Positions 6,229 to 30,619 of a DNA stretch of 30,710 nt are shown piece by piece. The translations under genes and the position numbers were made by a program. The notes below the pieces were generated by a model, which was not told the origin of the DNA, did no database searches, and saw nothing but the letters and a program-made list of their open reading frames with translations. The first letter of the stretch is position 1. Each line of letters opens with the position of its first letter. The stretch spans positions 1-30,710 of the IMG/VR virus record IMGVR_UViG_3300012665_000488; one strand, written 5' to 3'. Origin of the DNA: a virus. Its lineage: Duplodnaviria; Caudoviricetes.

Positions 6229-6268
6229 AATTCGGTTATTTGTATAATTGATTATTGATATTTAACAG

Positions 6269-6926: not shown

Positions 6927-6935
6927 TGTTAAAAA

Positions 6936-7127
6936 CTATTTCTGCTGTTGAAAACGTAGCACTGTGATGTATATCCAAAAAGGAAGCCATACAAGCCCTG
7001 TAAAGAAGATGCCCACATAAGCATACCAATGGTAAGAAGATAAGTGTCTCTGATGTCTGTAAACGTTCAGAGATAAGATTGTGAAATGAAGTAGGAAGCC
7101 TACTAAGTAGATAATGAATAGTGTCAT
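6936..7127 (-). CDS. Small membrane protein (two TM segments)
   Basis: 63 aa with two hydrophobic stretches; 4-bp overlap with the upstream gene. Confidence 0.65.
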   Translation of the reverse strand: MTLFIIYLVGFLLHFTILSLNVYRHQRHLSSYHWYAYVGIFFTGLVWLPFWIYITVLRFQQQK

Positions 7128-7642
7128 AGTTTTTTTCTTTTGGCTCTTCGTTTTTTTTGTATCGGCTCAGGAGTGAGCTCTAAGTTAGTTAATTCAATTA
7201 GTGCTTGAGCTGATTCCAATTTACTTAGCTCAGATAACAAGCGCTGCTCTACATCATCTACGTATTTCTTGGCGCATGGGCCACAGCTTGTACCAGGGTA
7301 ATTTAAGTTAGTATACTTCTTTCGCATCTCACCTATGACCTTCATATCTTGGCTCGTTACTTGATTCTTTCTCTTTGTAGATTCAATGAAGGCAAGCATA
7401 TTCTCAATTACCAATCTATCATCTAAGATGGGCCATTTCTTCGCAGGACAATCCTTAACTGCATACATTGCCAAGTGATCAATAGGGCAGCCGCATGGCT
7501 TAAATAGATGGCCATTAAGCTCAGTTGGTTTAGCGAATGGATTGATGGCATTAGTTGGAGGCCCGCACGTTTTATAGCGAGTATTAAATACTTCGCACTT
7601 ATTGCAGATTTCAATCCTCGCAGCGTAGTTTTCTTTGGTCAT
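7124..7642 (-). CDS. Cys-rich, probably Zn-binding protein with basic C-terminal tail
   Basis: CNKC, CGCP, CPAKKW and TSCGPC motifs; ends QKKRRAKRKKL. Confidence 0.7.
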   Translation of the reverse strand: MTKENYAARIEICNKCEVFNTRYKTCGPPTNAINPFAKPTELNGHLFKPCGCPIDHLAMYAVKDCPAKKWPILDDRLVIENMLAFIESTKRKNQVTSQDMKVIGEMRKKYTNLNYPGTSCGPCAKKYVDDVEQRLLSELSKLESAQALIELTNLELTPEPIQKKRRAKRKKL

Positions 7643-8139
7643 ATTTGTAACGAATTTCTAAGTGTTATTTTAGCTTTCTTAATTGTGCGATAAAGATAGT
7701 TCAAAGGTATGCCAGTCTCTTTAGCTAACTCCTGATAAGAGAAATCATCTAAGGCATAAAGAAAGAATAGCTCCCTCTCAAAGTATGGTAAGCGACTGAT
7801 AAAGATATCTAACTGCTCATTCTCTAATCTCATCCCTACGCTTTTATTCACATCGTCTATAATATCATCTTTTAGATCGTTGCGTATCTTTTCGAATCTT
7901 AACCGGGTATAGTTGAATGAGCTATTACTGCATCTTGCAGAGAGTCTAATAGCATTGCTCACGTAATTGTTTAGCTTGCCTCTATCATGGATTTCTTGAA
8001 GCTTATCTTTATCTGATTCTAATATCTTAAGCAGCGTGTCATGGAGCAGCTCATCAGCCAAGTCTAAGCGAGTAACAGTTGCTGCTACTCTGCGCCATTC
8101 ATTATAGCATCTATCTATTTCACTGCGCCATGTAGTCAT
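7639..8139 (-). CDS. ECF-like RNA polymerase sigma factor (probable late-gene activator)
   Basis: Region 2-like LADELLHDTLLKI and region 4 HTH RLPYFERELFFLYALDDFSYQELAKETGIPLNYLYRTIKKAK. Confidence 0.8.
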   Translation of the reverse strand: MTTWRSEIDRCYNEWRRVAATVTRLDLADELLHDTLLKILESDKDKLQEIHDRGKLNNYVSNAIRLSARCSNSSFNYTRLRFEKIRNDLKDDIIDDVNKSVGMRLENEQLDIFISRLPYFERELFFLYALDDFSYQELAKETGIPLNYLYRTIKKAKITLRNSLQI

Positions 8140-8464
8140 CTATAACTTTTTTAGCCTCATCGAAGCTCTTGCATGTAACTGCTTCATAGCCATTGTTAAT
8201 AAGCTTTGCTTGCCAATCCTTTTGGCTCTGACTCATTACACCCTTAGCTGTTTTCATTTCTATAGCTAATCCAAAAAATGGGCCCTTAGCATTGTAGATA
8301 AAGATATCAGGGAAGCCTTTAACATATCCTGTTTTCTTCATCTTTACTGCCTGCTTCATAGACGTGCGAACACCTCCAGCTGAAGCACAGTAAAGTAAAC
8401 GCGGATATTGAGCGTTAATGTAGTTAATAACAGCCTCTTGTATTAAGGCTTCCTCATTCTTCAT
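8120..8464 (-). CDS. VRR-NUC domain nuclease (PD-(D/E)XK; Holliday junction resolvase-like)
   Basis: EEALIQ...GVRTS...GFPDIFI...AIEMKTAKGVMSQSQKDW. Confidence 0.88.
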   Translation of the reverse strand: MKNEEALIQEAVINYINAQYPRLLYCASAGGVRTSMKQAVKMKKTGYVKGFPDIFIYNAKGPFFGLAIEMKTAKGVMSQSQKDWQAKLINNGYEAVTCKSFDEAKKVIDDYMAQ

Positions 8465-8468
8465 GATT

Positions 8469-8501
8469 CAAAATTAGTCTATTAACTTACTTGCTTTCAA
8501 C
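8469..8501 (-). promoter_or_regulatory. Bacteroidota promoter, probably near-leaderless, for the VRR-NUC/sigma operon
   Basis: TAATTTTG at 8476-8469, 4 nt before ATG 8464; GTTG 21 nt upstream. Confidence 0.55.
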
Positions 8502-8504
8502 ATC

Positions 8505-8525
8505 TTATTCACATACTTATTCACA
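8505..8525 (+). promoter_or_regulatory. Two tandem DnaA boxes (TTATTCACA x2)
   Basis: Exact TTATNCACA consensus at 8505-8513 and 8517-8525, 3 nt apart, intergenic, between divergent promoters. Confidence 0.65.
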
Positions 8526-8540
8526 TAGCATTAAGCACTA

Positions 8541-8548
8541 TATCTTTG
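8541..8548 (+). promoter_or_regulatory. Plus-strand -7 promoter element TATCTTTG
   Basis: TAnnTTTG consensus followed ~50 nt later by a plus-oriented terminator. Confidence 0.6.
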
Positions 8549-8552
8549 ACTC

Positions 8553-8630
8553 ATGAATTTGCTTTTGGTTTAGCAATGATTATTGATTTTCTCTGAGATA
8601 GGCTTGCAAACGTGCAGGCCTATTTTAGTT
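8553..8630 (+). ncRNA. Putative trans-acting antisense small RNA (~75 nt)
   Basis: Promoter plus terminator; contains TTTGGTTTA (8564-8572) and TGATTATTGATTTT (8577-8590), complementary to the 5' end of the 13187 gene mRNA and partly to other early-gene start regions. Confidence 0.6.
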
Positions 8631-8632
8631 TT
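8598..8632 (+). terminator. Intrinsic terminator
   Basis: ATAGGCTTGCA-AACG-TGCAGGCCTAT 11-bp stem (one G-U pair valid only on + strand) followed by TTTAGTTTT. Confidence 0.75.
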
Positions 8633-9950
8633 AGATAAATGCGTACTTTGTGTAATTCCTATTAAGCTCAAAGTAAGCTCGCATCATTATAGCATCTGCT
8701 ATATCGGGAGAGATTCCTCCGGTGCGCTGGCTGATAGTATCTTTTGATGTTACTCTTAGCTTACCTTCCTTATCAGGATCTACTCTGCGAATAAGCTCAA
8801 GCTCCTTAACTATATCCTCTTGCCATTTAATTGGTAGCGTTATCTCATTCTTATCTATTAGCTCGCCAAGTCTAAAGTAGCAGTCTGCTTTTAAGTTCAT
8901 GTACTGAGTGCCTCTCACAGCTTTACTACCATTCATAAATTCCCTGCAGCGTAGGCTATCAACGAGACCTCCCCCCACCCCATCAGCATCTGCGAGCACG
9001 TTACTTAGTCTAATGCCATGCTGATTCATTAAGCGCTGAATCTCTGCCTTAACTTCATCCTGTCGCTTTTGGCGCAGCACTACTATATCAATACAGCTAA
9101 GGCCTCTCCAAACACAAAGCACTGTTCTATCTTTACCTAATCGCGCTATATCGGCTGTGATGTATCCCTCACCTACATTCATTGGCTCTCTAAAGCAGCG
9201 CATAAGTTCATCATAAAGGTAAAGTCTATCACTGCTGTTATCAAATTCCCAATCTCCCTCAAGCAAGCGCTTTCTATCTGCTTCAGGTAATCGGGTAAGG
9301 CTTGTAACGTAGGAATCGGGTAAGTGTATATTATCTCCAGGTAGCGCTTGAATAAAAGCTCTATGCTCAGGAAGATTCTGATTCTTGTATGGTAAATAGA
9401 ATTGGTTGTATATCCATCCTTTAGATGGGTTACATGTAAGTAATATCTTAGGCTTAAGGCCAAACTCATTAAGCTTGTAACGAATACGAGAGCTGACAAT
9501 AGAATAAGCCTTCTCAGTTATCTCAGTAGCTTCATCTATAAATGCATCTGTAATTTCAAGGCCTCCTAAATCGGTCATCATAGGATCTGATGGATAGAGA
9601 AACAAGTCAGCTAAGATAATTTCACTACCATTACTAAACTTAATGATGTGGCTCTGTTGATTATAGATAAAATCTTCCCCTGCTTTAAGCCCTATCTCAT
9701 TAGCCACCTGAAAGAAAGTAGCCATTGTAGTTTTCTTAAGAGTGTCTAACTTGGCTCGGCCTATTAATGAGCGTGTACCTGGGTACTTTAAGCGCCTAAG
9801 AATTTGCCACATGCAGCCGAGCATAGTCTTTCCACCGCCTGCTGCTCCTCCATAGAGGATAGTTTCAACATCTGAATCTACTGATAAGAATTTAAGTGCT
9901 TCGGATTGCCTTGAAAGAGGCTTAAAGTTATAATCTATTTGTCCCGCCAT
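8631..9950 (-). CDS. terL: Terminase large subunit
   Basis: Walker A YGGAAGGGKT, Walker B AFIDEA, coupling motif LTCNP, RNase H-like ITADIAR and SPDIAD. Confidence 0.93.
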   Translation of the reverse strand: MAGQIDYNFKPLSRQSEALKFLSVDSDVETILYGGAAGGGKTMLGCMWQILRRLKYPGTRSLIGRAKLDTLKKTTMATFFQVANEIGLKAGEDFIYNQQSHIIKFSNGSEIILADLFLYPSDPMMTDLGGLEITDAFIDEATEITEKAYSIVSSRIRYKLNEFGLKPKILLTCNPSKGWIYNQFYLPYKNQNLPEHRAFIQALPGDNIHLPDSYVTSLTRLPEADRKRLLEGDWEFDNSSDRLYLYDELMRCFREPMNVGEGYITADIARLGKDRTVLCVWRGLSCIDIVVLRQKRQDEVKAEIQRLMNQHGIRLSNVLADADGVGGGLVDSLRCREFMNGSKAVRGTQYMNLKADCYFRLGELIDKNEITLPIKWQEDIVKELELIRRVDPDKEGKLRVTSKDTISQRTGGISPDIADAIMMRAYFELNRNYTKYAFI

Positions 9951-11236: not shown

Positions 11237-11521
11237 CTATCCGTAGTTAACCCATAATTTATTAAGCATAGGTTTATAGTGCTTGACTAATTCTTTTTCT
11301 GCAATACAGCAAGCGTTATAGGTATCATATTCATACAAATTTACACTATTAAAATCTTTTGAATGTTTATGATAATGTAATCTATCATGTAAATTACGCG
11401 ATCTCCCTACGTAAATTACCGTATCATTATCTAAAAGAATATAAACAAAATGCCTTCCTTTTACCCTATTCAATTTCTGAGTAATCTCATTTCGAGAAAT
11501 TATGTACATAAACTGATTCAT
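11237..11521 (-). CDS. GIY-YIG nuclease family protein
   Basis: FVYILL...IYVGRSRNLHDRLHYH...AEKELVKHYKPMLN. Confidence 0.8.
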   Translation of the reverse strand: MNQFMYIISRNEITQKLNRVKGRHFVYILLDNDTVIYVGRSRNLHDRLHYHKHSKDFNSVNLYEYDTYNACCIAEKELVKHYKPMLNKLWVNYG

Positions 11522-11523
11522 AA

Positions 11524-11988
11524 TTAAAAATGTAATACTTCCATTAACACATTCTCGGAAGAAAATTCTATTCCTTCTTTAGTATCTATTTCAATAGTTT
11601 GAAATCCTCGTCTGACATCAGGTTTTAATAATCTAATTTCAGCTTTAGCATAATCTTCTACTATATCTGAAATATCAAAATCTACATGTTCATCTCTTGC
11701 ATCTTTATCTCTACTATCTTCAGATATGTTCCAATCATGGCGAATAAAATTTTCACGAAGAGATAAATGGTTAACTGGATAGTAAGCCAATAGCTCATAA
11801 TTCTCACCGTACATTCTCATTCTTCTTTCAATGTTTTTTGTCTTACCATATTTCCATTGAACTTCTAAACGCTCATGACCATTAATAGGATTAACCCAAA
11901 GCACTGTTTTTTTACAGCAGTAGATAAAGCCTTTTTGAGCTTTAGATTTCTTAAAGAAATAATCTACCCATGTTTTATTCTCACTCAC
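11524..11988 (-). CDS. T5orf172/GIY-YIG-like protein
   Basis: GFIY...WKYGKTKNIERRMRMY...RE pattern resembles the T5orf172 branch of GIY-YIG. Confidence 0.55.
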   Translation of the reverse strand: MSENKTWVDYFFKKSKAQKGFIYCCKKTVLWVNPINGHERLEVQWKYGKTKNIERRMRMYGENYELLAYYPVNHLSLRENFIRHDWNISEDSRDKDARDEHVDFDISDIVEDYAKAEIRLLKPDVRRGFQTIEIDTKEGIEFSSENVLMEVLHF

Positions 11989-12179
11989 AGCTTCTCCTCC
12001 CTTATCTCTATCTTAAATAGCTCTTTGAGTATTTCTATCTCATGCTCTTTCCAATTGCTAATTCCGTTTTCTCTCAGGCAGTAATTACTCTGCTCTATGC
12101 CTAACTTAAAGGCTATGTATTCCTGCTTATATCCGTAAAATAAACGGTAGCATTTAATTGATTTGTGAAATGGTATCAT
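11985..12179 (-). CDS. XRE-family HTH transcriptional regulator
   Basis: IKCYRLFYGYKQEYIAFKLGIEQSNYCLRENG. Confidence 0.82.
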   Translation of the reverse strand: MIPFHKSIKCYRLFYGYKQEYIAFKLGIEQSNYCLRENGISNWKEHEIEILKELFKIEIREEKL

Positions 12180-12922
12180 TCTTTCTCTTTGTTAATTTGT
12201 TTAATAATGTCTATGTAAATTAGTCTGCTGAGCTCAATCTTTTGTAAGCCATCAAATTCAGTTTGTGCAGATTCGCCTAAGATAACTTTATTAGATGCCT
12301 TAAATTTACCCTCTACTTTCTGCTTAGCTATATCTTCAAAGCGTGCCCATACTTCAGGTGCCCACATAGATTTCTTATAGATACCTTTTCTAAAGAGGCG
12401 CTGGCAGTTGTAAGGTGCAGATATCTCTACCCATGTTTCTTTACCTGCATTCCATCTATCTACGTCAGCGTGCAGCGCATCTATAGGATCAGTAGGTTCA
12501 GCTCTTTTTATCTCAGCTTCCGGTAAGATTAAAGCCTTATTCAGCTCTCGCCATACTTTGCTCTTATATTCCTCATAGCGCTTTAATACATCGGCCATAA
12601 ATGAGATGCTAAATAGGTTAAAAGCTTCTACCCTTTCGAAGTCTTTGCCTATAGCGTTATAGAGAAAGGCATTCTGCCAGTCTTTAATACTTGTACTGCG
12701 ATACGTATTTTGTGTAAGTTGTTGAAGCATAGTTACTTCTATGTCTGAAGGTAGAGCCTTAATCGAATTGATTACAGCTGCCTGAGCAATTAACTCTCTA
12801 AACTCCTGCTCAGATAGCGTGTGTAACTTAGGTGAGCTAATGCACTCAGCTATAGCTCTTTCTTCAGCGCTTAGTGAACGACTGAAGCTCTGCTGTACTA
12901 ATGCGGCCAATTCTTTGCTCAT
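12176..12922 (-). CDS. Putative replication-associated protein (position of helicase loader/recruiter)
   Basis: 248 aa directly downstream of and overlapping the replication-protein-like ORF; no ATPase motifs seen; function inferred from position. Confidence 0.5.
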   Translation of the reverse strand: MSKELAALVQQSFSRSLSAEERAIAECISSPKLHTLSEQEFRELIAQAAVINSIKALPSDIEVTMLQQLTQNTYRSTSIKDWQNAFLYNAIGKDFERVEAFNLFSISFMADVLKRYEEYKSKVWRELNKALILPEAEIKRAEPTDPIDALHADVDRWNAGKETWVEISAPYNCQRLFRKGIYKKSMWAPEVWARFEDIAKQKVEGKFKASNKVILGESAQTEFDGLQKIELSRLIYIDIIKQINKEKE

Positions 12923-13187
12923 CTTCTTTAGATTTATTTTGATTAGTATCTCTTGCTTTCCATTGATCGCAAGCTGCTCTCCAGCTCTTCATGGAATTTC
13001 TGCCTACCTTCCAACCGTTAGACTCGTAGAATGTATAAAAGCGCTTGGCTAATACTACATCTTGCGTATAGTCTATGATGTCGGATAAAGATGGGGGAGT
13101 GAATTTAGTAGAGGCTGAGCGCTTTTTTTCAAGCGCCCTTACCCTCTCTTCAAGCGCTTCAATGCGCTTCAATAAGATTGTTGTCAT
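12864..13187 (-). CDS. Phage replication protein C-terminal-like domain with N-terminal coiled coil
   Basis: KFTPPSL...FYTFYESNGWKVGRNSMKSWRAACDQW resembles the C-terminal domain of phage replisome organisers; N-terminus LLKRIEALEERVRALE is a heptad repeat. Confidence 0.65.
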   Translation of the reverse strand: MTTILLKRIEALEERVRALEKKRSASTKFTPPSLSDIIDYTQDVVLAKRFYTFYESNGWKVGRNSMKSWRAACDQWKARDTNQNKSKEDEQRIGRISTAELQSFTKR

Positions 13188-13212
13188 TTGGTTTAATTGA
13201 TTATTGATTTTA

Positions 13213-13243
13213 CAAAGATAGGTTATTTAGCTAATCTATCAAA
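13213..13243 (-). promoter_or_regulatory. Bacteroidota sigma-A promoter for replication genes
   Basis: TTTG (13243-13240) - 19 nt - TATCTTTG (13220-13213). Confidence 0.8.
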
Positions 13244-13711
13244 AGCTCTATTTAAATCTTGGTTATCTATGTGGTTTAAGATTTGCTCTACATGGCCTCT
13301 ATACATTCGGTCAGTTTGAATCATGTTTTCTACGGATCTAACAGCGTGCAGGATTGTAGCGTGATGCCTATTGAATATCTTGCCTACATCGTAAAAGCTC
13401 ATAGAAGTACCTTTGCGAATAATCCACATAGCTGTCTGCCTAACATCGTTTAGCTCACGCTTTCTGCACTTACCTTTAAGCTCGCTCCAATCCACCTGGG
13501 TAACGTTGCAGATAACTTTCATCATCTCATTAGTTAGCTTCTCGTTTAGACTCTCTACCTCTCCATTTATAGACTTCCAATTTAGCTCAGGTATTTGAGA
13601 TTCATTTACTACTCTTATGATGTTATCAATTCGTCTACGTGCACAGTGCTGATTTTCTGATGGAATCAGTAAGATTAAATCTGCTATTTTCTTTTCTAAC
13701 TCTCGGCTCAT
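13223..13711 (-). CDS. DnaA C-terminal (domain IV) HTH-like protein
   Basis: ELKGKCRKRELNDVRQTAMWIIRKGTSMSFYDVGKIFNRHHATILHAVRSVE matches the DnaA domain IV signature. Confidence 0.85.
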   Translation of the reverse strand: MSRELEKKIADLILLIPSENQHCARRRIDNIIRVVNESQIPELNWKSINGEVESLNEKLTNEMMKVICNVTQVDWSELKGKCRKRELNDVRQTAMWIIRKGTSMSFYDVGKIFNRHHATILHAVRSVENMIQTDRMYRGHVEQILNHIDNQDLNRAFDRLAK

Positions 13712-13941
13712 TTGCTATCTTTCATTAGTTCTAAAATGTATGGTATCTCTTCCTCAGTGATATTAGCAAGCTTACCTATGTGCGTAACCTTCATAGTGCG
13801 AGGCTGCTTAATATATTTCTGAGCTGTTGGGTAACTTACCTCAAGCACCTCCGCGAATTGGCTCACAGTCACAAAGTGACTGCGAACCCATGCGTGGAAC
13901 GGTGTTAGCTTAGAATGGCATTTCATCGTCGCTTGCTTCAT
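13708..13941 (-). CDS. Cro-like HTH protein
   Basis: TVSQFAEVLEVSYPTAQKYIKQP helix-turn-helix pattern. Confidence 0.65.
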   Translation of the reverse strand: MKQATMKCHSKLTPFHAWVRSHFVTVSQFAEVLEVSYPTAQKYIKQPRTMKVTHIGKLANITEEEIPYILELMKDSK

Positions 13942-14521
13942 CTAATTTAGTATTAATTGGTGAACTAACTTTTACCTCTTCCTCTTTAAGCCAAGCCAAG
14001 AATATCTCAGCAGTATCTAACACATCCCCTGGCTTAGCTCCTTTAGTCTCTTTGCAGAATAATACTGCATTGTTTAGAGCTACTGATCTGCTGATAGAGT
14101 TCTGCACTTCAGGTGATTCTTTGCGCGGAGCGTACGCTGATTGTACTATGCCTTTTCCTGCTCCATTAAATGGATTAGGATTCTGCAATTTAAAGTTAGT
14201 GCTCTTGCGGCCTGTTGGTCCAGTGCGCTCTTCTGATGTGTAGTGAATAGTAGCGCCTACTGCTATCTTAGGGCTGTTCATATCCTTTACACCTACCTGA
14301 CCTACTTCGCCATTCTCTAAAACTAAATCGAAGTAATAGATTGTGCCGCTTGGCCCGTTCCACTCTCTAACGAATTTCTGACTTTTTACTACTGACTGAT
14401 TCATAACTGTGTTGTTTTTATTTATGTATTTACTTAATTTATCTGCTAACTTTTCTTCCTGCTCATCCCAGTCTATCTCAGGCTTGAGCTTTTGCCAATT
14501 AGGCTCTCTCGTATAACTCAT
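13910..14521 (-). CDS. SSB-like protein (start probably 14521 or 14404 rather than 14557)
   Basis: Beta-rich N-terminal domain, low-complexity linker and acidic C-terminus DEASDDEMPF like SSB tails. Confidence 0.6.
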   Translation of the reverse strand: MSYTREPNWQKLKPEIDWDEQEEKLADKLSKYINKNNTVMNQSVVKSQKFVREWNGPSGTIYYFDLVLENGEVGQVGVKDMNSPKIAVGATIHYTSEERTGPTGRKSTNFKLQNPNPFNGAGKGIVQSAYAPRKESPEVQNSISRSVALNNAVLFCKETKGAKPGDVLDTAEIFLAWLKEEEVKVSSPINTKLDEASDDEMPF

Positions 14522-14654
14522 GTATGTTATTTTGAAAGTATGAGCGCCAAGATTCATAGACTATCTTCTCGGCTTGCTGATTAAACTCTAACTCCTCTCC
14601 CGGTAGTGAGCTTTCTACGCAAATGAATTTGCTGTTGTAGCGTTCAGATAACAT
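14499..14654 (-). CDS. Small hypothetical protein (51 aa; below track cutoff)
   Basis: Manual translation MLSERYNSKFICVESSLPGEELEFNQQAEKIVYESWRSYFQNNIHELYERA*. Confidence 0.6.
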   Translation of the reverse strand: MLSERYNSKFICVESSLPGEELEFNQQAEKIVYESWRSYFQNNIHELYERA

Positions 14655-14874
14655 AGCGGTCACTCATAAAATAGTCATGTACATTGCTCTCGCCTTCGCT
14701 CTCAAATTGGTACAAGAAAGTACCATCGTCAGGCATTACTTCACCATGCCTTTTAGCAGTTGAGAAATCAGTTAATGAGTAGTCATGGGCTGATGTGTAC
14801 AGCTTCCATCCGCAAGCTTCGGCATCCCACCGACTTACGATAACCTTACCGGTTATGTTGTTTGGTTTATTCAT
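14644..14874 (-). CDS. Early hypothetical protein (76 aa)
   Basis: Co-oriented ORF with A-rich leader. Confidence 0.6.
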   Translation of the reverse strand: MNKPNNITGKVIVSRWDAEACGWKLYTSAHDYSLTDFSTAKRHGEVMPDDGTFLYQFESEGESNVHDYFMSDRYVI

Positions 14875-14906
14875 GATATTGATTATTTAATTAAGTTGCT
14901 AATATA

Positions 14907-15143
14907 CTAAACTTTCTTTATACTAATTACCACCTCGTCATTTTCCCACTCATAAAGTGCATGCTCGTTATACTCATTGATCCATACTGGTGTATAATCG
15001 AACTTGTAGATTTTCATAAGTAGCGGTAACATCTGCTGTGCTACTTCCCAAGTGTCTGCTATGAATAGGTTAGGAGTGCCTAAGCGCTCGGCCATTGAGA
15101 TAGCTACCTCGTCTAATGGGTTTACTGTTACATGGAATTTCAT
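14907..15143 (-). CDS. Early hypothetical protein (78 aa)
   Basis: 4-bp overlap with the upstream ORF. Confidence 0.6.
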   Translation of the reverse strand: MKFHVTVNPLDEVAISMAERLGTPNLFIADTWEVAQQMLPLLMKIYKFDYTPVWINEYNEHALYEWENDEVVISIKKV

Positions 15144-15322
15144 AACTCTACCTCCTTGCTTAATAAGATTGTCTTAGTAGGCACCCATGCAATGGCTTCA
15201 TTGTATGCAGATTCTGCCTCTTCAAATGTGTTAAATGACTTGTGATAGCATCCATCAATTTTTAAGTAGTAGCGTATGCCATCGTACTTAGATTGCTCTT
15301 CGATTTCAAATAGCTTTTTCAT
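15140..15322 (-). CDS. Early hypothetical protein (60 aa)
   Basis: YYLKIDG...FNTFEEAESAY motif; follows the 38-aa ORF. Confidence 0.6.
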   Translation of the reverse strand: MKKLFEIEEQSKYDGIRYYLKIDGCYHKSFNTFEEAESAYNEAIAWVPTKTILLSKEVEL

Positions 15323-15324
15323 GA

Positions 15325-15441
15325 TTATTTAGTTGTTAAATTGGTTTCTATTTTTTCTAATTCTTGAGTGTCTGCATCGAATGATCCTCCGATGAGTAGG
15401 CCTGCGATAATCATCGCGAGAAAGAGTAGTGCTTTTTTCAT
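15325..15441 (-). CDS. First early gene, 38-aa single-TM/signal peptide protein
   Basis: Manual translation MKKALLFLAMIIAGLLIGGSFDADTQELEKIETNLTTK*, directly after a consensus promoter. Confidence 0.6.
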   Translation of the reverse strand: MKKALLFLAMIIAGLLIGGSFDADTQELEKIETNLTTK

Positions 15442-15463
15442 TTGCTTATTGATTTAATTTTAG

Positions 15464-15494
15464 CAAATGTACTACGATATTTTAGAAAAGCAAA
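15464..15494 (-). promoter_or_regulatory. Bacteroidota sigma-A early promoter
   Basis: TTTG (15494-15491) - 19 nt - TACATTTG (15471-15464); a second TAACTTTG at 15522-15515. Confidence 0.8.
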
Positions 15495-15541
15495 AGAAAC
15501 CTTACTAATTATAGCAAAGTTATTAACAAATAATTGTTAGC

Positions 15542-29995: not shown

Positions 29996-30619
29996 TTAGA
30001 CAGGTTTAATATTAGTTAGTTTTCTCGTTTGATTTAAGATATAGATATAGACCGCATCCCCCATTGCCTCGTTAAATTGAGCAGCGTATTCAGGTAGTGT
30101 CTCAAGATATGCATCTCTAAAATAGTAGAGCGGAGCAATACCTTTCTTTTCAATACTCTTAGCCATTGCATTAGCCACTCTCAAGCGCTGCTTCTCATCT
30201 TTGTTAACTGCGCTCTTAGCGAACTTAGTCATCTTGCCAGTCTCACCCATTGCTCTGAGCTTAATCTTCTTTAGATTCATCCAATTAAGAATAGCATCCA
30301 CAGGAGGCTTAGCTGCTCCTGCTGCAAATCTCTTATCTATGCCTGGGTAATTGCTCTCCTTGCCTTGCCTTCCGTATTCAACCCACTTAGCATAGTCAGC
30401 TGATGAGTCAAAGCCAATAGATGGCAGTGTGCCTGTTACATCTACATCGTAATAGAGCGAAGCTGCAAGCGTGCCTGTAGTGTTAGCTCTGCGCTTCTTG
30501 CCAAATCTCGTTTGCTGGATGCGAATGTTAGAGCGTGCGCGATCAGTAACGGATTCCCCGAAATCTAAAAGCACATCGTATAGCGCTCCCTGTTCAAACA
30601 GCTCAGCAAGTATGCTCAT
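29996..30619 (-). CDS. Putative tail completion/neck protein
   Basis: TGTLAASL, YAKWVEYGR, PPVDAILNW, KGIAP motifs; homologue of 827-1363. Confidence 0.68.
   Translation of the reverse strand: MSILAELFEQGALYDVLLDFGESVTDRARSNIRIQQTRFGKKRRANTTGTLAASLYYDVDVTGTLPSIGFDSSADYAKWVEYGRQGKESNYPGIDKRFAAGAAKPPVDAILNWMNLKKIKLRAMGETGKMTKFAKSAVNKDEKQRLRVANAMAKSIEKKGIAPLYYFRDAYLETLPEYAAQFNEAMGDAVYIYILNQTRKLTNIKPV

Follow-up and report, generated by a model that had tools for sequence, protein, structure and literature searches.

A predicted small RNA of a freshwater phage whose guide sequence covaries with the start regions of early genes

What does a solitary plus-strand promoter-terminator unit do in a phage whose genes run on the opposite strand? 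The window, by which we mean the whole stretch of DNA analysed (30,710 nt), represents a complete virus record of 30.7 kb whose genes lie on the minus strand, and an earlier note on it had singled out positions 8541-8632 as a lone small RNA that might repress several early genes. The products identified in the window are a portal, a head protease, a tape measure, a terminase, an endolysin, a VRR-NUC protein, a sigma-70 region 4 protein and a DnaA C-terminal-domain protein. A scan of 46 window proteins revealed neither an integrase nor a partition gene, and, as the earlier note had said, no divergent CI gene was seen, but a co-directional small protein of the early region (13708-13941, minus strand) gave a weak HTH_17 match; a second small early protein (11985-12179, minus strand) appeared HTH-like by eye only. 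The genome also contains a free-standing small GIY-YIG endonuclease-like gene within a low-GC stretch (11237-11521, minus strand) and, near the two record ends, two related genes (827-1363 and 29996-30619, both minus strand) that both match phrog_29822 and have similar upstream sequences.

The closest cultured terminase large subunit (terL) was that of Flavobacterium phage 11b, at 47.6% identity, and promoter words of the form TAnnTTTG, which we take to be the Bacteroidota-type promoter consensus (-7 element), recur in the window. Because of these two observations, Bacteroidota are the likely host group of this freshwater phage, as judged from sequence. We found no cultured relative of the phage sigma factor and no relative in the bacterial genomes searched, and the search for terL homologues gave near-identical proteins only, among the matches listed.

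The unit lies in a gap of 166 nt that separates the terL stop (8631) from the VRR-NUC start (8464) and holds two divergent promoter elements. The coordinates of the earlier note proved correct throughout, and the features of the locus, together with the DnaA-like gene, are the following:

7639-8139, minus strand: sigma-70 region 4 protein, in the same operon as VRR-NUC
8120-8464, minus strand: VRR-NUC, first part of the operon divergent from the RNA unit
8469-8476, minus strand: divergent promoter element TAATTTTG of the VRR-NUC/sigma-70 region 4 operon
8505-8525, no strand assigned: two DnaA-box-like 9-mers TTATTCACA, at 8505 and 8517, between the divergent promoters
8541-8548, plus strand: promoter element TATCTTTG (TAnnTTTG) of the RNA unit, with TAnnTTT invariant in 63 distinct units
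about 8553-8630, plus strand: predicted small RNA of ~75-80 nt, its start placed from the promoter position
8553-8573, plus strand: 6-codon mini-ORF, judged incidental
8559-8576, plus strand: hairpin 1, with stem 8559-8563/8572-8576 and loop seed UUUGGUUU(A) at 8564-8572, from fold and covariation
8577-8590, plus strand: single-stranded seed UGAUUAUUGAUUUU, unpaired in the predicted fold
about 8593-8632, plus strand: intrinsic terminator hairpin of 16 pairs, with a U tract on the plus strand only (predicted terminator 8593-8628)
8631-9950, minus strand: terL, whose stop codon adjoins the terminator of the RNA unit
13223-13711, minus strand: Bac_DnaA_C domain protein (E 1.4e-17)

The word TAnnTTTG occurs four times on the plus strand of the window, and only TATCTTTG is intergenic and followed by a terminator. 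The RNA is nonetheless not 'lone', as a second promoter-terminator unit is present on the minus strand (about 6891-6800). The fold z-score of the RNA unit was -4.7 on the plus strand versus -3.6 on the minus strand. At its -33 position the promoter has no TTTG and carries a 9-mer box instead. These TTATTCACA 9-mers, which presumably are candidate DnaA sites given their resemblance to DnaA boxes, were present in at least one copy in 161 of the 162 loci with the RNA unit. The Bac_DnaA_C protein is a candidate binder of the boxes and, as these lie between the two promoters, boxes and protein together suggest a candidate switch. Further DnaA-box-like 9-mers lie at 15520 and 6935-6954, giving three promoter regions in all with such boxes nearby.

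Upon gathering relatives by terL and sigma-factor searches, we obtained 183 loci (repeats of the same contig included) that fell into three lineages, with terL identities of 89-99% (lineage 1), 76-81% (lineage 2) and 82-83% (lineage 3). The RNA unit was present in 162 of them (136/155, 15/17 and 11/11, respectively), and among the 183 we found no locus that had VRR-NUC plus enough upstream DNA and lacked the unit. In 63 distinct lineage-1 units both stems were kept, with 99.5% of 942 cells paired and 7 of 16 pairs altered on both sides, compared to 17-52% pairing in slid controls; hairpin 1 taken separately was 98.5% paired, with four of its five pairs changed on both sides. One-sided stem changes were G-U wobbles that fit the plus strand only. 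While the stems and the DNA toward terL turned over, the loop and the single strand remained nearly constant: across the 87 distinct contexts into which the lineage-1 loci merge, the loop word TTGGTTT was kept in 86 and the single-strand seed in all 87, with a +U variant of this seed in 32 of 87 relatives. From these sequence comparisons, the element is shown to be a conserved promoter-to-terminator unit with a covarying plus-strand fold. A scan of viral contigs (3 of 64 parts) for the two-seed DNA pattern yielded 120 loci, of which six had a promoter and a terminator and represented the same-lineage unit, the others being random-looking.

Such a unit might instead be a gene for a mini-peptide or a mere terminator of terL. 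As an ATG precedes the loop in only 3 of the 87 contexts, we judged the mini-ORF incidental and rejected it as a functional unit. In the window, the hairpin does adjoin the terL stop, but its U tract points away from terL, and in relatives up to a few hundred variable bases lie in between. Together with an activating role of the RNA, taken up below, we regard these explanations as very improbable. In relatives L001-L080, terL stop and RNA terminator are separated by 0 to ~350 nt made up of modular blocks, many of them palindromic, whose order varies; the window has none.

Outside the three lineages, the locus is arranged differently. In an outgroup whose sigma factor is ~47% identical to the query (L380, L389, L392, L394, L399), the whole block from the early genes to terL has the opposite orientation with respect to the VRR-NUC/sigma operon, and the first early gene directly follows the promoter that diverges from VRR-NUC. 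No comparable RNA unit was seen in the 23 partial loci of this inverted-layout group, which gave two unrelated hits, and 80 partial distant loci (terL 53-63%) held no comparable U-rich unit and four unrelated promoter-terminator matches. We may speculate that the RNA gene arose where the inversion left a promoter without an operon.

Other candidate structured RNAs were seen as well. In the second, minus-strand unit (about 6899-6800), the loop of the terminator hairpin can pair with the 5' end, the two covarying in at least six pairs of sequences. With duplicates left in, a complementary stretch of at least 6 nt is present in 107 of the 108 lineage-1 loci scored and in 10 of 11 loci of lineage 3; lineage 2 lacks the unit. 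Among the 45 start regions of the window, none stood out as a target of the U-rich middle of this unit, and the unit may, judging from its sequence, be an attenuator of whatever lies behind it. A further stretch, 6804-6701 (minus strand), gave a sub-threshold match to the Rfam family Betaproteobacteria-1 (37.6 versus 49.4 bits), and a like match recurs in lineage 2 just behind a promoter-like element (L201 11237-11354; L212 11166-11251); this is likely a third structured RNA, as far as the matches tell.

To what could the conserved loop and single strand pair? The complementarity reported in the earlier note was confirmed in full at the start of the gene at 13187, where 9+14 nt can pair (13187-13195 and 13198-13211), 13187 being the A of the AUG, and the partial matches that it listed at 14861-14884, 15446-15455, 15321-15329 and 6249-6259 were all present. 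The predicted targets in the window are:

13187-13220, minus strand: target 1, promoter 13220-13213 and short leader of the 107-aa gene 12864-13187
14861-14884, minus strand: target 2, leader, AUG and codons 2-5 of the 76-aa gene 14644-14874, the first gene behind a TAnnTTAG promoter-like element
15437-15471, minus strand: target 3 (weaker), promoter 15471-15464 and leader of the first early gene (start 15441), with the match at 15446-15455
6249-6259, minus strand: possible minor site of 11 nt, 21-31 nt upstream of 6228, in some relatives only

The predicted duplex at 13187 (-25.4 kcal/mol) ranked top among the 45 start regions and among 6093 minus-strand windows, followed by the start region of 14874 at rank 2 and then by 15441 and 6228. 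Upon shuffling the guide 1000 times with its dinucleotides kept, none of the shuffles equalled the 13187 duplex at that site and 32 did so at any of the 45 sites. The uncorrected fractions for the shorter matches, which the note had allowed might be due to chance, were 0.007 for 14874, 0.041 for 15441 and 0.027 for 6228, whereas the match at 15322 ranked 21st of 45 and falls within background. The window considered by itself thus offers modest evidence for targeting (corrected p ~0.03), and the comparative data carry the case. The perfect 14-nt match of the window is in fact atypical: its core AATCAATAATC occurs in 8 of 46 relatives' leaders, while the 13187-type leaders have TAAACCAA in 46 of 46 and TAATC in 45 of 46.

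The target genes themselves are small and poorly characterized. The protein encoded at 13187 gave no informative family, PDB-sequence or fold match (best Z 4.8), so these searches did not bear out its earlier designation as a replication gene; the sole support for such a role is that the gene follows DnaA-C, and DnaT, the nearest named cluster in the Atlas (0.77), is a lead only. Family searches assigned no function to the 14874 protein. Between the DnaA-C and 13187-type genes, some relatives carry a gene absent from the window (L019 6129, L072 6797, and the L201 and L408 equivalents), whose leader frequently ranks with the best predicted targets and whose lineage-3 versions behind DnaA-C matched no PHROG family.

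Covariation of guide and targets in relatives, which the earlier note had named beforehand as something whose absence would speak against its idea, was seen across three lineages, each with a guide sequence of its own. When start regions were ranked by cofolding in 12 genomes, the 14874-type gene held rank 1-5 in 12 of 12 and the 13187-type gene in 9 of 12, with ranks of 8, 14 and 19 in the other three (14th of 41 in L408 and 19th of 43 in L410); in L204, neither target beat the shuffles (72 and 51 of 300). We then compared cross-lineage binding with 27 of the 65 distinct guides. The guide of the own lineage bound best for 34 of 34 14874-type targets by cofold (26/26, 4/4 and 4/4 in lineages 1 to 3) and for 33 of 34 by duplex, with mean energies of -12.9, -12.3 and -14.5 for the own lineage versus -3.4 to -9.1 for foreign guides. 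For 13187-type leaders the corresponding numbers were 27 of 48 by cofold (20/40, 6/7, 1/1) and 31 of 48 by duplex, lineage-2 guides being equal to the own guide on lineage-1 leaders (-11.0 vs -11.0), and for first-early leaders they were 8 of 23 (2/15, 3/5, 3/3) and 11 of 23. Lineage specificity is therefore clearest at the 14874-type gene and weaker at 13187 and the first early gene. Of the multi-target repressor RNA proposed in the earlier note, the structured plus-strand unit, the several predicted early targets and their covariation hold, while 15321 has dropped to background and 14874, rather than 13187, is the clearest target.

The sequence words follow the same division. In lineage 1, AAACCAAA was present in 34 of 34 14874-type regions and in 0 of 22 lineage-2/3 regions, and AAACCA in 46 of 46 13187-type regions. 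In lineage 2, the hairpin is a different one and the guide is complementary to AATCT...TCAAA, with AATCT in 14 of 14 of its 13187-type and 14874-type leaders and AAACCAAA in none; its 5' segment co-varies with the first codons, AGTCATATT going with AAT ATG ACT (L201/L202/L204/L368) and GTCATGTT with AAC ATG ACT (L205/L206). Lineage 3 carries a third guide that matches ATAAACA-type leaders (ATAAACA/ATATAAC in 8 of 8) and a 5' segment that matches ATGACACAG at the start of the 14874-type gene. Codons Lys3-Pro4 of the lineage-1 14874-type gene, on which the loop match falls, read AAA CCA in 34 of 34 and are two of only four single-codon positions among 35 invariant degenerate residues, an invariance to which the A-rich bias of first codons may contribute. 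Within lineage 1, the +U guide goes with a +A first-early leader (22/0 vs 1/4) and with a +A leader of the gene absent from the window (17/1 vs 1/8). As two changes suffice on the terL and ssb-like gene trees and L072 equals L364, shared descent inflates the Fisher p values, and this association is one or two events; likewise, the three lineages amount to only about two independent switches. Overall, complementarity is shown, at the level of sequence, to track early-gene start regions across the three lineages.

These data bear on the possibility that a real U-rich RNA is aimed at host mRNAs or titrates a host RNA-binding protein, the leader matches merely reflecting the generic A-richness of Bacteroidota starts. 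Start regions in this group are A-rich as described in PMC6847099, the host-encoded FopS-type RNAs discussed in PMC11697453 have the same single strand plus terminator and bind start regions, and the weak lineage specificity of the first-early and 13187-type leaders would fit as well. However, composition-keeping shuffles seldom matched so well, all 34 of the 14874-type targets favoured the own-lineage guide, and the seeds switched jointly with phage sequences, codons included, and we consider host targets improbable.

Could the shared words instead be DNA sites, that is, operators of a phage HTH protein or repeats homogenised by recombination, with a transcript that is incidental or interferes at the divergent promoter? 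On the DNA, element and targets are direct repeats, the majority of them just 3' of promoters, one small protein has the weak HTH match described above, and gene conversion could produce concerted indels. Yet the spacing of the half-sites is variable, with gaps of 5-10 nt in the guide and of 1-3 and 5-11 nt in the targets, which is compatible with pairing because RNA pairing is flexible; a covarying hairpin separates or presents the sites, with wobbles that work on the plus strand only; and in example folds the lineage-2/3 matches run into coding sequence across an extruded hairpin. We hold this explanation to be very improbable.

We hypothesize that the predicted RNA is a trans-acting antisense repressor of early translation that serves as a delayed, dosage-dependent timing brake, a reading to which we give slightly better than even credence. 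Host polymerase would transcribe the unit from genome entry on, and the ~75-nt RNA would pair in trans with early mRNAs of the phage, at their start regions, and thereby damp their translation. In lineage 1, AAACCAAA would be the nucleation site for the hairpin loop UUUGGUUUA and (U)AAUCA that for the adjoining single strand, while in lineages 2 and 3 the 3' single strand would lie on the leader and the 5' segment over the AUG plus first codons, and the intervening hairpin would bulge out. The duplexes are A-U rich, with net energies of -8 to -17 kcal/mol in a model that leaves kissing loops aside. Initiation in Bacteroidota depends on unpaired upstream adenines (-3, -6, -12, -13) and not on Shine-Dalgarno pairing, according to PMC6847099, and as the duplex would cover -25 to +12, initiation should be blocked.

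The same 5'-end pairing could in principle protect or activate the mRNAs, as the leaders are short and the targets occupy their very 5' ends. But pairing would cover the AUG or the initiation adenines, and the leaders are unstructured, leaving nothing for an RNA to open; this is the activating role that we grouped above with the mini-peptide and the terL terminator.

As for when repression would act, each genome copy would make the constitutive RNA, such that the early operons would be repressed late and by dosage, at about the time that the divergent sigma operon takes over or starts late expression. Such a delayed, gene-dosage-dependent brake is in our view the most likely role, and exclusion of kin arriving later would be a by-product, making immunity a possible second role. 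If, by contrast, immunity or superinfection exclusion were the main role of the same pairing, a resident genome in a carrier state or as a plasmid-like prophage would hold its early genes low and block kin with the same code, yielding immunity groups like those of P1 and P7. The layout is constant while the guide differs between lineages, no divergent repressor gene was seen, and c4 produces P1/P7 heteroimmunity in such a way according to PMC12197685. On the other side, no integrase or partition gene was found among the 46 window proteins, bacterial genomes yielded no relative, and foreign guides bind lineage-1 13187-type leaders equally well, so that immunity groups would blur; we think immunity unlikely as the main role. 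A bolder picture can also be drawn, which we put forward tentatively and with more doubt than confidence: one small RNA would be the master repressor of all early operons in a phage group without an integrase or divergent repressor gene, a lineage-specific address in leaders and first codons would create RNA-only immunity groups, the pairing geometry would have been rewired between a loop seed and a two-arm clamp round an extruded hairpin, and the RNA gene would sit at the spot of the inverted outgroup's early promoter.

How does this RNA relate to what has been described? The phage antisense repressors c4 and sar act on one antirepressor message in enteric phages, as described in PMC12197685, and the word stems Bacteroid- and Flavobacter- are absent from that review. 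We found no paper on small RNAs of Bacteroidota or Flavobacterium phages, though structured-RNA catalogues (e.g. PMC8040213) could hold the motif in their supplements. In a host group that does without Shine-Dalgarno pairing, a 31-kb freshwater phage appears to use a single RNA to run several of its early operons, and the three natural guide-target sets are ready specificity swaps.

Among known systems, plasmid copy-number antisense RNAs (R1 CopA, ColE2 RNA I) are cis-encoded and fully complementary to one target. A constitutive RNA that limits a possible replication gene would likewise sense genome dosage, but the unit described here is trans-encoded and has an imperfect, split match to multiple targets. 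The CI RNA of P4 is an RNA-only immunity factor that pairs with two sites in the early transcript, is encoded in the leader that it controls and causes termination. The likeness lies in an RNA-only factor and two pairing sites in an early transcript, whereas our element (plus strand, 8553-8630) is 4.6-6.9 kb away from its targets (minus strand, 13187-15471) and hence not encoded in a controlled leader.

Closer is c4 of P1/P7, which according to PMC5320573 and PMC12197685 forms three stem-loops, is released from its precursor by RNase P cleavage and represses an antirepressor message. Like c4, the RNA is phage-encoded, about 77 nt long and, as predicted here, trans-acting, with two exposed, lineage-specific seeds near a translation start; the two seeds are predicted from sequence and covary at translation starts. 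It differs in having its own promoter and terminator, two supported helices rather than three stem-loops, several predicted early targets and a host group without Shine-Dalgarno pairing; the target genes had no antirepressor family match, and an Rfam cmscan at E<=1 (window, L201, L212, L412) gave no match at the element, c4 included. FopS and GibS of Bacteroides thetaiotaomicron, as presented in PMC11697453, are chromosomal and multicopy, target host glycan genes and bind RbpB. The resemblance covers a housekeeping-sigma promoter, binding (predicted for our unit) at the 5'-end start regions of several polycistronic mRNAs and a single-stranded seed followed by an intrinsic terminator, the order also found here, and GibS has two seeds, as predicted for the RNA unit. 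Our unit, by contrast, is phage-encoded and its predicted targets are phage genes, and the likeness to FopS is one of layout; Rfam 15, which may lack a FopS model, gave no match at the element. The RNA unit would thus act like P1/P7 c4 and FopS, yet appears, on this comparison, to be a member of neither family.
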